In this document: positions 3,001-6,000 of the stretch, in pieces
Layout: each line of letters begins with the position of its first letter
How positions within the stretch are numbered: position 1 is the stretch's first letter
DNA from: a virus
Lineage: Duplodnaviria; Heunggongvirae; Uroviricota; Caudoviricetes
Reading direction: 5' to 3' (one strand)
DNA: 7,680 nt
IMG/VR virus record: IMGVR_UViG_2671180366_000007
Span: 1-7,680 of that record
Position numbers: made by a program

Positions 3001-6000
3001 ATACCTCACTGAACCGGCAGTATGCGGAGCTGCTGAGTGAATATAAACATCTGCGGCGGTATTTTGGCGTGACGGTGCAGGTGCCGTATACCGATGTGTG
3101 GACGCATAAACCGGTGCAGTTCTATCCCGGGAAACATCCGTGCGAAAAACCGGCAGAAATGCTGCAGCAGATAATCAGCGCAAGCAGTCGTCCGGGTGAC
3201 CTGGTTGCAGATTTTTTTATGGGCTCAGGTTCAACGGTAAAAGCTGCACTGGCGCTCGGGCGTCGTGCGATTGGCGTTGAACTGGAGACCGGACGTTTTG
3301 AGCAGACAGTCAGGGAAGTTCAGGATTTAATCGTTTGAAACGGATGAGATTGCAGAATTAATTACGCACCATTATTATTCTGCTCCCGGCCCTTTAGCTC
3401 AGTGGTGAGAGCGAGCGACTCATAATCGCCAGGTCGCTGGTTCAAATCCAGCAAGGGCCACCATCACAAACCGTCATTAGCTTATCAGGAAGAGCAGACG
3501 ACACGATAACAGGGTTGTTGGTGCGGGGGCGGGTCCCCGATGGCGGTCCATTATCGGTATTCAGCGTTGTTAGCTCAGCCGGACAGAGCAATTGCCTTCT
3601 AAGCAATCGGTCACTGGTTCGAATCCAGTACAGCGCGCTATATTCATTCTTCCAGATTCCTTCCGGCAGAGCCTTATACTGAAATATACCTGGCTCAGGA
3701 TATTGTTGAAAATATTTTATGTTTGTCAAAAATAAAAGTTCTGTTAAGTATTGATTGAGTGTTTGTTATACGGTCTAATGGTTTTTTCAGCATTAAATAT
3801 TTATCATTCATATGGTGTGGGTAGAGTGAATATTGATGAGGCGTCGGGGTGTTTCATCCTTAGGCAGCGTATTGATATAGTCAATGCAGGACGAGCAAAG
3901 GCCTTCAGCCGTTTGACAGTTTTGTTCTGTACTCCTGATCGTCTTTCGGGAAGAGACGTTATTATTCTGAATAGTGATGCTATACAGAGGGTTTGCGATG
4001 AGTTCATGGTTGCTAATTCAGAATTATTTGCTCTTGTTCAGGAGTACAACAGAATAGCCAGGACCTGTGGTATGGATGAACTTCGGATTACTCATCTGGG
4101 GTAGATACATATCTGGATTATCACTTGTTACGGTAAAAAGTGATTGCTTACTGTTTTTGTGAGTGGCATTGCAGCAGCCGGATAATGTCAGTGCTGGCTG
4201 ACGGTGTGCTGGTGGCGGGTGTGGTGGTTGTTGCTTTCCCGTTGCTGAAAAAGAAAACGCCAGACTGTTAGCCGGGTATCAGTTAGCGGGAGAAATTTTT
4301 AAATACTTCACAATTCAGGCGGTTGACTGTTGTCTGGTTTGCGGGGAGTTTGTTAAAAGAAACTGGCATGGTGAATCCCCCTGTGCGGAGGGGCAATCAG
4401 CGAGTAGGTATATGGGATAATCGCGGATTCAGGTGCTGGTACTGAATTCACCGGGAGGCACCCGGCACCATGCAATGGCACATAGCGCCACTCTCCAGCC
4501 CCTCTCCGGAGGGGCTGTTTATATTGATTTTGTCAGATGTGAGTAAACTCCTTATGGACTTTGTTGTTTTAGTCCATAAGGACATATTTGCAGAGTGCAA
4601 CGGTTATTAAAGCATTCATTCAATACGTTATCTGTATTTGTAGGACATTCCTGGCTGTTTTTGATTAAATTCCAGAATGTTTTATTGAATGGTACTACGT
4701 TGTAAATGGTTACAGGTAGCACTTTGTTATTGAGCATGATACCTGTGTGAGTCAGTGTAAATATACTTTCAGGAGGTAAGAAAGCATCCGATTGATACCA
4801 GATTATTAATTTTATTTTACTCCATATGACTGAAAAAGATATTCCGCATGATGGCTGGATAACTGTATCAATCACAATCCACTTCATTTAGCTTCCTTGT
4901 TTATGCCTTGCTGGTGATGTTCTGAAAAGTATAAATGATATTTTTGAATATAAACCATAGAGCAGAATTATTTTTCTGATGTTGTTTATTGTTTATTTAA
5001 ATGCAGGGTGGTTTATATCTCGTCTTGTAGTTTATCCATGCATATCTGCTTGATGATCAGGTTTCTATTTAAGGTATGGTTTTGTGTTTTTTCTGTGTTA
5101 CATGTCTGGTATTTTAAAGAATTATTTTTCAGATGGTGGAAAGAACCATGGCATTTAAACACTATGATGTTGTCAGGGCGGCGCCGCCGTCAGATCTTGC
5201 GGAAAAGCTGACACATAAACTGAAAGAGGGCTGGCAGCCGTTTGGTAGTCCGGTGGCCATAACCCCTTATACCCTGATGCAGGCGATTGCAGCAGAAGGT
5301 GATGTGGTGGTCAGTGGTGCAACTGAGCCCGAGTGATACTACGTCATCGTACTGGCCCGGCATTCCAGGCCATAAAAGACAGTCTGGCAGTGGGACTAAA
5401 TGTACTGACGCTGACGGATATTACCAAAAATGCAACGTATGGCGTTGAGATAGAAAGTCTGGTGCTGGAGATAAATGCACCGGCATCATCATAAAAAGTG
5501 AGCCAGTCAAATGGAAGGTATCGTTAAACTCACCGGTAGTGTCAGTGGGTCGTCTGAGATGCCTGCATGAGTTATCAGAGCCATCAGTACTTAACTGGTG
5601 GCTTTTTTTATTGTTGTCAGCTTCCGGATAACGGGAGACGGGGTATGTACCAGATGGAAAAAATCACAACAGGTGTGTCATACACCACGTCAGCGGTGGG
5701 AACGGGCTACTGGTTACTGCAGCTGCTGGACAAAGTCTCTCCGTCCCAGTGGGTGGCAATCGGTGTGCTGGGGAGTCTGCTGTTTGGCCTGCTGACGTAT
5801 CTGACTAACCTGTATTTCAAAATCAGAGAGGACCGTCGTAAGGCGGCGCGGGGAGAGTAAAGCGATGAAGAAAAAATACGAACTGGTTGTTAAAGGGATA
5901 AATAATTACCCGGATAAGATTACTGTTACTGTGGCACTGGAAATTGGTGGGTATCCGTCACTGTTGTTGCCAGATGTGGCGATTAGTCTTGACCGTACTG

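Follow-up and report, generated by a model that had tools for sequence, protein, structure and literature searches.

Known relatives of the locus

The closest described relatives of the RNA gene analyzed here are the STnc100 and PasD small RNAs (sRNAs). The STnc100 copies of EDL933 were found to be transcribed, one of them being confirmed by northern blot (PMC5331693), and the copy located downstream of stx2B is the Hfq-bound sRNA EcOnc27/sRNA103 (PMC12711010, PMC4104026, PMC7873438). The stability of PasD1 and PasD2 is Hfq dependent, their targets have been identified by RIL-seq, and their seed was predicted to lie immediately 5' of the terminator (PMC8550237). PasD and STnc100 are considered homologous (bioRxiv 10.64898/2026.05.13.724894). 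Among the RNAs of CsrA ternary complexes, PasD2 ranked first in abundance.

The open reading frame (ORF) next to this RNA gene is related to DUF3927 (Pfam PF13064; PHROG 1470, labeled "TciB-like"). Full-length members of this family have 54 to 57 amino acids and, in protein alignments, two hydrophobic transmembrane (TM) helices, and they normally partner a TerB-domain protein labeled "tellurite resistance" (PHROG 632), to whose gene theirs is translationally coupled. At the loci L096 to L103, the start of the full-length DUF3927 gene overlaps the upstream TerB gene by 4 nt. Literature searches returned only unrelated Trypanosoma papers for TciA/TciB and nothing functional for DUF3927.

Overview of the stretch at 4105-4530

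The window, i.e., the whole 7,680-nt stretch of DNA that was analyzed, has the gene order of a lambdoid E. coli prophage: Q, a methylase gene, tRNA-Ile2, tRNA-Arg, cargo genes, holin, and lysozyme. Very probably, 4105-4530 consists of two unrelated neighboring cargo elements, namely, the wreck of a decayed terB-like/DUF3927 gene pair and an intact sRNA gene of the STnc100/PasD family (Table 1). Both lie in the late "moron" region, between the Q antiterminator gene and the lysis genes, which is also where STnc100 genes are placed. Both are already catalogued, in Pfam as DUF3927 and in Rfam as STnc100, and the stretch is an ordinary one.

The sequence-only reading had singled out this stretch as conspicuously GC-rich. 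The contrast is genuine and moderate: the GC fraction is 0.465-0.53 at 4101-4500 versus 0.285-0.36 at 4501-5100 on the 3' side and 0.335-0.35 at 3601-3900, although it already amounts to 0.43-0.44 at 3801-4100, directly 5' of the stretch.

Table 1. Coordinates of the features discussed, numbered along the window
Feature	Position	Strand	Basis or remark
Q	895-1716		
3' end remnant of TerB-domain gene, with GTGA start/stop overlap of DUF3927	4112-4139	+	DNA alignment with L097/L096/L100
DUF3927/"TciB-like" ORF remnant, 43 codons from GTG 4140	4140-4271	+	PF13064, phrog_1470, RefSeq
28-codon ORF, second TM helix and KKK tail of DUF3927	4185-4271	+	Protein alignment
sRNA promoter (-35 TTGTCT 4330-4335; 18-nt spacer; extended -10 TG 4351-4352 and TAAAAG 4354-4359)	4330-4359	+	Sequence reading
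Structured core of the STnc100-family sRNA, 108 nt	4366-4473	+	Rfam, model R1, RNAfold, covariation
P1, 8-bp closing helix	4366-4373/4466-4473	+	
P2, C/G hairpin	4378-4382/4389-4393	+	
Pseudoknot stem A	4396-4402/4434-4440	+	
Pseudoknot stem B	4425-4432/4442-4449	+	
P5, CCGGG hairpin adjoining P1	4451-4455/4461-4465	+	
Variable tail between core and terminator, 22 nt	4474-4495	+	Presumed seed region
Rho-independent terminator (stem 4496-4517; T-rich tract to 4526)	4496-4526	+	Terminator call, part of Rfam match
iraM-like gene	4552-4887	-	Convergent, next after sRNA
Holin	5567-5860		
Lysozyme	6260-6793		

An STnc100-family sRNA gene

The family membership and the anatomy of the sRNA were demonstrated directly. 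The match to Rfam RF02076 (STnc100) covers the whole model (positions 1-206) and scores 132.4 bits, compared to a gathering score of 47 (E = 8.4e-30); our own model R1 scores 89.4 bits on the sRNA core. Judged by these matches, 4330-4526 is a complete STnc100-family sRNA gene. Identical or near-identical DNA was found in 2,859 of the 5,426 complete E. coli genomes, at up to 12 places per genome; roughly 1,000 sequenced E. coli genomes hold identical copies, and the sRNA is present in 283 phage records, mostly of Stx phages.

The STnc100 RNAs, including EcOnc27/sRNA103 of Stx2 phages, have the same core helices and terminator as the window copy and match it over the full length. The position is shared as well, since these genes follow Q and moron cargo and precede the esterase/lysis region of lambdoid prophages. 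The window copy differs from them in that its middle inserted hairpin is shorter, its tail is different, and it is preceded by a DUF3927 remnant instead of stx2B. In addition, the 933W copy abuts a convergent partner sRNA of the AsxR/AgvB type, whereas the window has no such partner and carries the iraM-like gene in its place.

The gene order around PasD1 and PasD2 in the EPEC strain E2348/69 is the same as for the window copy (DUF3927, sRNA, and SASA esterase), and these RNAs share with it P1, P2, both pseudoknot stems, and an RNA start at the first base of P1. PasD2 falls below the Rfam threshold for STnc100, yet it was recovered by our own model. PasD RNAs have a lost or degraded P5, a predicted seed of their own (UGUGAG), and a different terminator. 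The predicted UGUGAG seed and the ends of the RIL-seq chimeras map to the segment equivalent to the window tail; however, neither the tail nor the terminator of the window copy aligns with those of PasD. Because of these differences, the window copy does not count as a variant of PasD, and its targets should be different ones.

Beyond E. coli, the family has spread through the Enterobacteriaceae, where it also occurs as the leader of KdgM porin genes. Approximately 40% of the family members in other genera lack a terminator close by and continue into ORFs.

A weak extended -10 sigma-70 promoter and an RNA start at approximately 4366 are inferred by homology to PasD2: the match of our own model in E2348/69 begins at NC_011601:741157, which is the published 5' end of PasD2 and the first nucleotide of P1. 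The promoter block, TTTGTTAAAA, is conserved among E. coli copies, and in other genera consensus sigma-70 promoters cluster with the -10 element ending 4 to 7 nt upstream of P1. Strict sigma-70 consensus scans of the window did not call the sRNA promoter, which is too weak for them; the sole promoter-like hit that they gave inside the stretch, at 4157-4186, is a bare consensus match whose start would fall downstream of ATG 4185. The first 29 or so positions of the Rfam STnc100 model are probably promoter DNA and not RNA. The sequence-only reading had placed a structured RNA ending in a terminator downstream of the 28-codon ORF; such an RNA exists, but it does not form one unit with the ORF, since a separate promoter lies between the two.

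The call of the second hairpin as a terminator proved right: its stem comprises 9 bp, 7 of them G-C, is followed by the T-rich tract, and is conserved in L096/L097/L100. The 9-mer noted earlier in two hairpins, CGGAGGGGC, occurs exactly at 4386-4394 and 4507-4515 (0.06 matches expected by chance; none of 200 shuffles gave two), and these hairpins are P2 of the core and the terminator. The repeat around it extends to 17 nt (4378-4394 and 4499-4515, 88%), its arms belonging to P2 and to the terminator. In the RNAfold model, the tail sits between the helices and holds a weak 3-bp hairpin. Its sequence is hypervariable, differing between otherwise near-identical copies, and that of the window is unlike both the PasD tail and the tail of the Stx2-phage copy.

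A covarying pseudoknot in the core

Folding of the stretch and a search for covariation in homologous loci had been proposed as checks. The segment 4337-4526 is structured (z = -2.26 versus shuffles), but folding of the whole of 4105-4530 gave a z of only -1.5, so that the 5' half of the stretch is not unusually structured. The minimum free energy fold of RNAfold recovers P1, P2, stem B, and P5. Covariation was strong in the two pseudoknot stems. In 95 MAFFT-aligned cores, 84.7% of the cells were paired, compared to 42-46% with the partners slid, and the covariation score was 0.287 versus 0.146 in shuffles, none of 500 shuffles reaching 0.287. The corresponding values for 110 model-aligned cores were 89.3% versus 37-47% paired and 0.393 versus 0.155 for the covariation score. 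Compensatory changes were found in this second alignment at all 6 pairs of stem A and all 8 pairs of stem B, the latter stem not being part of the model. P1 likewise shows compensatory changes, whereas P2 and P5 are nearly invariant and therefore uninformative. In a fixed geometry, 56 of 94 sequences formed a perfect pseudoknot with 12 bp or more, versus 0.5% of shuffles. That the STnc100 core holds an H-type pseudoknot with strong covariation, which the Rfam model lacks, is well supported and is a new observation.

The core also has a visual likeness to tRNA or tmRNA, with an 8-bp closing helix, a 4-5-bp arm with a GG loop, and a 5-bp arm adjoining P1. ARAGORN and the Rfam tRNA clan give no match there, ARAGORN calling just the two genuine tRNAs in the window, and the candidate was rejected.

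Proposed function of the sRNA and a possible role in cis

According to the proposed mechanism, the weak promoter would drive an RNA of approximately 160 nt that starts near 4366, at the first base of P1, and would fold into P1, P2, an H-type pseudoknot made of stems A and B, and P5 next to P1, followed by the 22-nt tail and an intrinsic terminator. In the lysogen, this RNA would act in trans as an Hfq-associated base-pairing regulator, in which the tail would serve as the seed, Hfq would bind the module formed by the terminator and its U tract, and the core would be a conserved scaffold. By analogy with PasD1/2 and EcOnc27/sRNA103, a trans-acting, Hfq-associated role is the most likely one for the window sRNA, and on the same analogy its stability would depend on Hfq and its tail would act as the seed. 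A pseudoknotted core of 108 nt with near-invariant loops far exceeds the needs of a base-pairing sRNA, so that it may have an additional function, for example in binding a protein or a ligand or in cis.

One version of such a second function is that the STnc100/PasD core is a ligand- or protein-binding domain with two uses, namely, as a 5' module in prophage sRNAs that act in trans and as the 5' leader of sugar-acid-related genes. The latter could be the prophage nanS-p sialate esterase genes and the chromosomal KdgM-family porin genes of Klebsiella, Kosakonia, Enterobacter, Raoultella, and Citrobacter. We consider this version unlikely.

Still somewhat less probable is that the core is in the first place a cis-acting sensor, riboswitch-like or protein binding, that governs read-through of the terminator or the downstream gene, its target being ancestrally the nanS-p sialate esterase gene and, in other genera, that of the KdgM porin. 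In favor of this are the compact pseudoknotted fold, with loops that are near-invariant over many genera, and the RNA start exactly at P1, as would be expected of an aptamer. In intact prophages, the SASA esterase gene is the next same-strand gene after the sRNA, and a single-copy chromosomal class lies 62-193 nt upstream of KdgM-family porin genes, most of its members having no terminator called within 160 nt. The 17-nt repeat common to P2 and the terminator in E. coli copies would moreover permit alternative pairing. However, the genes downstream of family copies are otherwise mixed, comprising holins, a MarR-like gene, a lipoprotein gene, and a tRNA gene, and no conserved expression platform is seen, since tails are hypervariable and terminators differ, those of other genera being unrelated to P2. 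Many copies are arranged in tandem and have individual promoters and terminators, and the relatives studied experimentally are Hfq dependent and act in trans. The window itself retains no cis target, as its esterase is reduced to a fragment and the gene that follows is the convergent iraM-like one, and the core matched no riboswitch family in Rfam.

A truncated DUF3927 gene upstream of the sRNA

The 28-codon ORF at 4185-4271 was described correctly as a small hydrophobic membrane-protein ORF. It ends with TAG, and its frame stays open back to GTG 4140, giving 43 amino acids. This 43-residue ORF matches PF13064 with 95.6 bits (cut-off, 25) over profile positions 7-53 and carries the RefSeq label DUF3927 family protein; the phrog_1470 match is restricted to residues 12-40, as compared to residues 1-54 in the 57-residue form. 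The C-terminal 31-34 residues of DUF3927, consisting of SSRIM and what follows, the second TM helix, and the KKK tail, are 93-100% identical in the window. Invariant across family members are M16, V18, A20, D21, L24, and F33-K38, and only the 28-codon part is conserved in all of them. In EPEC E2348/69, a diverged DUF3927 has retained the pattern of the protein as well as the gene order (DUF3927, sRNA, and esterase).

The genomic history of the ORF was read from DNA alignments. Homology of the window to the terB-DUF3927 loci L097/L096/L100 begins at about 4112; upstream of this point, the terB sequence has been swapped for an unrelated AT-rich ORF of unassigned function. Compared to the intact loci, the window DUF3927 has deletions of 11, 4, and 14 nt; its first TM helix is destroyed, residues 2-10 (IAYCFCEWH) of the 43-residue ORF being former TM1 sequence in a shifted frame, and the ancestral frame is kept solely in 4170-4271. 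The 11-nt deletion generated a 12-nt inverted repeat (4120-4131/4133-4144, 92%) that is missing from the three intact loci, and this repeat is, on that alignment, an accidental product of decay. It contains the ATCACTT/AAGTGAT stem-loop of the sequence-only reading, which exists but lies at 4120-4126/4138-4144, 3 to 4 nt upstream of where it had been placed.

In this history, the terB-like gene was replaced by the AT-rich ORF and the three deletions took out TM1, so that the last 28 to 34 codons, for the second TM helix and the KKK tail, are left in the original frame. The ORF would be a decaying remnant that has lost its function and encodes at most a truncated membrane peptide, and not a leader peptide. 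The 28- to 43-residue peptide may have a residual function, since truncated forms of the ORF are found very often and continue to be annotated.

A rival reading is a type I toxin-like peptide whose expression would harm or modulate the membrane, as the single hydrophobic helix with its polybasic tail had suggested. Family members share a conserved peptide core, and 28-residue forms are annotated on more than 1,000 contigs. However, the peptide is the C-terminal half of a 54- to 57-residue two-TM protein that is normally coupled to TerB, and its ATG at 4185, which encodes an internal Met in full-length genes, is in a poor context, with GGA just 2 nt before it. Truncated copies carry indels, duplications, and nonconservative substitutions, e.g., L to P or G to C. 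No Rfam RNA family was matched at E <= 1 on either strand of 4105-4336, although an uncatalogued antisense RNA may exist, and neither an overlapping antisense RNA nor another type I hallmark was found. PADLOC gave no credible defense-system match for the TerB partner, the full-length DUF3927 of 57 residues, a 117-residue ORF, or the IraM-like protein, and the lone PHROG label of the full-length relative is "TciB-like". The sequence-only reading had named a fragment of a known gene as an outcome that would speak against it, and the ORF is the C-terminal part of DUF3927. We regard a toxin as very improbable.

Its other proposal, an ivbL-like leader peptide whose translation chooses between terminator and antiterminator, drew on a Val-rich ORF (9 of 28 residues), a same-strand terminator downstream, and a terminator 5' arm that could pair with the 3' arm of P2 through the repeated 9-mer, but it is hardly conceivable, since the terminator stem begins 225 nt past the ORF stop with a separate promoter and RNA start in the gap, the Val run corresponds to TM2 in a family of proteins with two TM helices, the gene that follows is convergent, so that there is no same-strand regulated operon and nothing to attenuate, the sRNA occurs without the ORF (e.g., 87 nt after stx2B in 933W), and the hypervariable tail between core and terminator allows no conserved alternative pairing. 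Pairing of P2 with the terminator was rejected as a mechanism on the grounds given above for tails and terminators. A tblastn search with the 43-residue ORF found this ORF variant in 1 phage record, versus 283 records with the sRNA, which is weak evidence for their separability, as the BLAST low-complexity filter may mask hydrophobic matches. The likeness of the locus to ivbL-type attenuators and type I toxins is superficial and confined to hairpins that come after a short, hydrophobic, Val-rich ORF; unlike these systems, it has no coupling distance, regulated operon, or antisense RNA, and its ORF is a fragment.

Implications

Very many E. coli and Shigella genomes have an annotated "DUF3927 family protein" of 28 to 43 residues; it is the truncated remnant of a two-TM protein whose proper partner is TerB-like, and the window has lost both the TerB gene and the N-terminal TM helix. 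If the core of the STnc100/PasD family is indeed a binding domain, it would couple the activity of prophage sRNAs, or the expression of downstream genes, to a metabolic or protein signal. The pseudoknot, together with the hypervariable tail as the probable target-pairing region, should guide target prediction for the many uncharacterized copies of this sRNA in pathogenic E. coli.

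DUF3927 remnant and STnc100-family sRNA

The segment 4105-4530 (426 bases) is a DUF3927 gene remnant followed by an intact sRNA gene of the STnc100/PasD prophage family; both components were already known. In the Rfam search, 4337-4526 matched the full STnc100 model (RF02076) at 132.4 bits (gathering score, 47). The segment had been described from sequence as a GC-rich spacer, and GC content is indeed 0.465-0.53 over 4101-4500, compared with 0.285-0.36 downstream and 0.335-0.35 at 3601-3900.

The 28-codon ORF named in the sequence-only reading occupies exactly 4185-4271, and its frame is open from GTG 4140, giving 43 aa. 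This ORF belongs to DUF3927 (PF13064, 95.6 bits; PHROG 1470, "TciB-like"), a family found only in Escherichia and Shigella and annotated at many lengths, whose full-length members span 54-57 aa with two hydrophobic helices (MTVKMRLAVVALLLFLVVMVDFSSRIMSVLADGVLVAGVVVVAFPLLKKKTPDC). In the terB-DUF3927 loci of other genomes (L096-L103), the GTG that opens DUF3927 overlaps the stop codon of the gene for a 143-aa TerB-domain protein (PF05099, PHROG 632), and the order is Q, (methylase/AraC), TerB, DUF3927, STnc100, (IraM), SASA esterase and lysis genes. Homology of the window to these loci begins at about 4112, directly past the stop of an unrelated AT-rich 117-aa ORF, which took the place of the terB-like gene. 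The PHROG 2873 match to this ORF spans residues 10-117; it had no Pfam match and is unannotated in the RefSeq record inspected.

Alignment with intact loci showed that terB is missing from the window and that DUF3927 has suffered three deletions in its 5' half, of 11, 4 and 14 nt. Because of these deletions, the ancestral frame is kept only in 4170-4271, and "IAYCFCEWH" is former TM1 sequence, now out of frame. The 11-nt deletion gives rise to the ATCACTT/AAGTGAT inverted repeat, previously noted as a stem-loop; the repeat is present, although it lies at 4120-4144, a few bases upstream of where it had been placed, and it is missing in intact loci. The repeat is thus accidental and no signal. 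A much more diverged DUF3927 of 52 aa upstream of PasD2 in EPEC E2348/69 retains the protein pattern, which argues that the full-length gene is genuinely coding and that the DUF3927-sRNA adjacency is old. The ORF and the sRNA are separable elements; this ORF variant is present in one phage record only, compared with 283 records with the sRNA, mostly after stx genes.

Prophage setting

The window corresponds to the late-gene "moron" region of a lambdoid prophage of E. coli. The methylase and both tRNA genes (2289-3338, 3388-3638) are placed between Q and the cargo, and in Stx phages ileZ-argN-argO and stx occupy this same position. Copies of the 426 bases with 100% identity exist in many complete E. 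coli genomes, and some match was detected in 2859 of 5426 E. coli genomes, in a maximum of 12 places per genome.

Features of the window and its sRNA core
Feature	Position	Strand	Remark
Q-type antiterminator	895-1716		PF03589
DNA N6/N4 methylase	2289-3338
tRNA, CAT anticodon	3388-3463		RefSeq label tRNA-Ile
tRNA-Arg (TCT)	3564-3638
AT-rich cargo			3' of tRNA-Arg, 5' of holin
AT-rich 117-aa ORF, TTG start	3751-4104	+	Stop 4102-4104; PHROG 2873, function unknown
Predicted sRNA promoter elements	4330-4335; 4351-4352; 4354-4359		TTGTCT; TG; TAAAAG; equivalents of other-genus promoters
Predicted extended -10 of sRNA	4351-4359		TGtTAAAAG
Pseudoknot stem A	4396-4402/4434-4440		Segment 3' of P2 with loop of hairpin B
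Stem B (hairpin B)	4425-4432/4442-4449
iraM-like anti-adaptor gene	4552-4887	-	NCBIfam NF007393, 162 bits
DUF1737 fragment	about 5148-5333	+	Incomplete pseudogene in identical RefSeq locus
P21-type holin	5567-5860
DUF1327 protein	5865-6209
Lysozyme	6260-6793

The iraM-like gene is convergent on the sRNA, with about 26 nt between its end and the T tract of the sRNA, and fills the slot that an AsxR/AgvB-type anti-sRNA takes in other prophages. A perfect 12-bp inverted repeat (4549-4582) overlaps the last codons of the iraM-like gene. As no minus-strand terminator was predicted for this gene, its transcription may continue into the sRNA gene in antisense orientation. In intact prophages the sRNA is followed by the nanS-p (SASA) sialate esterase, whose N-terminal domain is DUF1737; since only a fragment of this domain is left, the esterase has probably been deleted.

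Published relatives

EDL933 has 11 STnc100 copies, most of them transcribed with low ribosome coverage and one backed by a northern blot (PMC5331693). The copy directly 3' of stx2B is the Hfq-bound sRNA EcOnc27/sRNA103, which makes up a convergent "dyad" together with the anti-sRNA AsxR, with a moron CDS on one side and a conserved esterase gene on the other (PMC4104026, PMC7873438, PMC12711010). This layout was confirmed in phage 933W, where STnc100 (207.7 bits) starts 75 nt past stx2B, its core from 104 nt, and AsxR abuts it on the opposite strand. In contrast, the Rfam search detected no AsxR/AgvB partner in the window, where the iraM-like gene stands instead. The EPEC sRNAs PasD1/2 depend on Hfq for stability and have interactions mapped by RIL-seq (PMC8550237), and their common ancestry with STnc100 has been concluded (bioRxiv 10.64898/2026.05.13.724894).

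A pseudoknotted core

The ends of the core (4366-4473) are almost invariant (5' GGUGAAUCCCCCU..GCGG.GGGG, 3' UCACCGGGAGGCACCCGGCACC), whereas its middle varies in length and sequence. This middle is an H-type pseudoknot that is missing from the Rfam model. In an unbiased MAFFT alignment of 95 cores, compensatory changes were found at 6 of 6 pairs of stem A and 8 of 8 of stem B, pairing reached 84.7% of cells compared with 42-46% for slid partners, and the covariation score was 0.287 against 0.146 for shuffles, none of 500 reaching 0.287. Among 110 sequences aligned with a model that holds stem A and not stem B, stem B showed compensatory changes at 8 of 8 pairs and 80% pairing. In a fixed-geometry search, a perfect pseudoknot of at least 12 bp was present in 56 of 94 sequences and in 0.5% of shuffles. 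Across many genera, compensatory changes occur at every pair of both stems (core alignments A3 and A4). The word "pseudoknot" is absent from the 2026 survey of Pas sRNAs.

PasD2 (L104, NC_011601 741157-741328) retains both stems (AAUGAUC/GAUCAUU and GAGUUCUG/CAGAACUU), but its P5 hairpin is degraded and it falls below the Rfam STnc100 gathering score; our own core-built model recovered it at 32.6 bits. A 2026 preprint reports that PasD2 outnumbers all other RNAs in CsrA ternary complexes, to which the conserved GGGAGG motif of the family may be relevant.

The 9-mer CGGAGGGGC is shared as reported between 4386-4394 and 4507-4515 (chance expectation, 0.06 matches). The two hairpins carrying it are P2, the first hairpin of the STnc100 family, and the terminator, the second copy lying, as proposed, within a canonical terminator (stem 4496-4517). 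Folding had been suggested for the whole stretch, which gave z = -1.5; the 3' half (4337-4526) folded better than shuffles (z = -2.26), and better-than-shuffled folding is limited to it.

Start and tail of the sRNA

Consensus sigma-70 promoters of other genera are concentrated where the -10 hexamer ends 4-7 nt before P1; 19 of 35 strict promoter matches in 240-nt windows belong to this cluster. The corresponding elements of the window would set +1 at 4366, where P1 begins, which makes it probable that Rfam model positions 1-29 (4337-4365) represent promoter and not RNA. In E2348/69, the match of our model starts at NC_011601:741157, exactly the published PasD2 5' end.

The 22-nt tail (4474-4495) varies among otherwise almost identical E. 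coli copies, whereas promoter, core and terminator are conserved. The equivalent tail-plus-terminator segment of PasD contains the predicted seed UGUGAG, the northern probe sequence and the ends of the RIL-seq chimeras. Start, tail variability and seed position together suggest a product of about 160 nt with a pseudoknotted 5' core, a variable seed tail and a terminator.

Family breadth and possible functions

Scanning one genome per species for an exact pattern identified more than 90 STnc100-like loci across Enterobacteriaceae, in Escherichia, Shigella, Citrobacter, Klebsiella, Raoultella, Enterobacter, Kosakonia, Leclercia, Superficieibacter, Trabulsiella and others, and Rfam assigned STnc100 in 18 of 18 loci tested. 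In Klebsiella, Kosakonia, Enterobacter, Raoultella and Citrobacter, a near-identical subclass of the core with a 72-75-nt middle is followed, 62-193 nt further on, by a KdgM-family porin gene; each scanned genome had this subclass on a single contig. The KdgM-associated loci are L010, L018, L026, L028 (core 1326-1449, then ORF 1528-2229), L034, L044, L060, L073 and L086; the porin assignment (PF06178, 259.7 bits) comes from one gene tested. In most copies no terminator was called between core and porin gene, so that the core resembles a 5' leader there. STnc100-like genes also form tandem arrays of two to four (L025:6310-7038, L036, L058, L082, L037, L041), with a promoter-like sequence for each gene and a terminator for most; the Superficieibacter spacing is 257 nt, and some arrays adjoin tRNA genes and isrI-family sRNAs.

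A riboswitch-like core is an unlikely reading. In its favour are the elaborate fold, the RNA beginning at P1 and some family members that precede a KdgM porin gene or the nanS-p esterase; against it, the genes downstream are otherwise of mixed kinds, many copies stand in tandem with a promoter and terminator each, and relatives work in trans with Hfq. A leader peptide with attenuator had also been envisaged. Attenuation requires a terminator near the leader stop and a downstream operon to be regulated, but here the terminator begins 225 nt past the ORF stop, behind an independent promoter and RNA start, the tail in between is hypervariable and the next gene is convergent. A type I toxin, which requires a toxin ORF that stands alone together with an antisense RNA, does not fit either: the ORF represents the 3' half of a longer gene, its ATG 4185 corresponds to an internal Met codon in a poor ribosome-binding context, and the Rfam search detected no RNA family over the 28 codons.

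Modest additions to the published record of the STnc100/PasD family are its pseudoknot, a corrected 5' boundary and its breadth.
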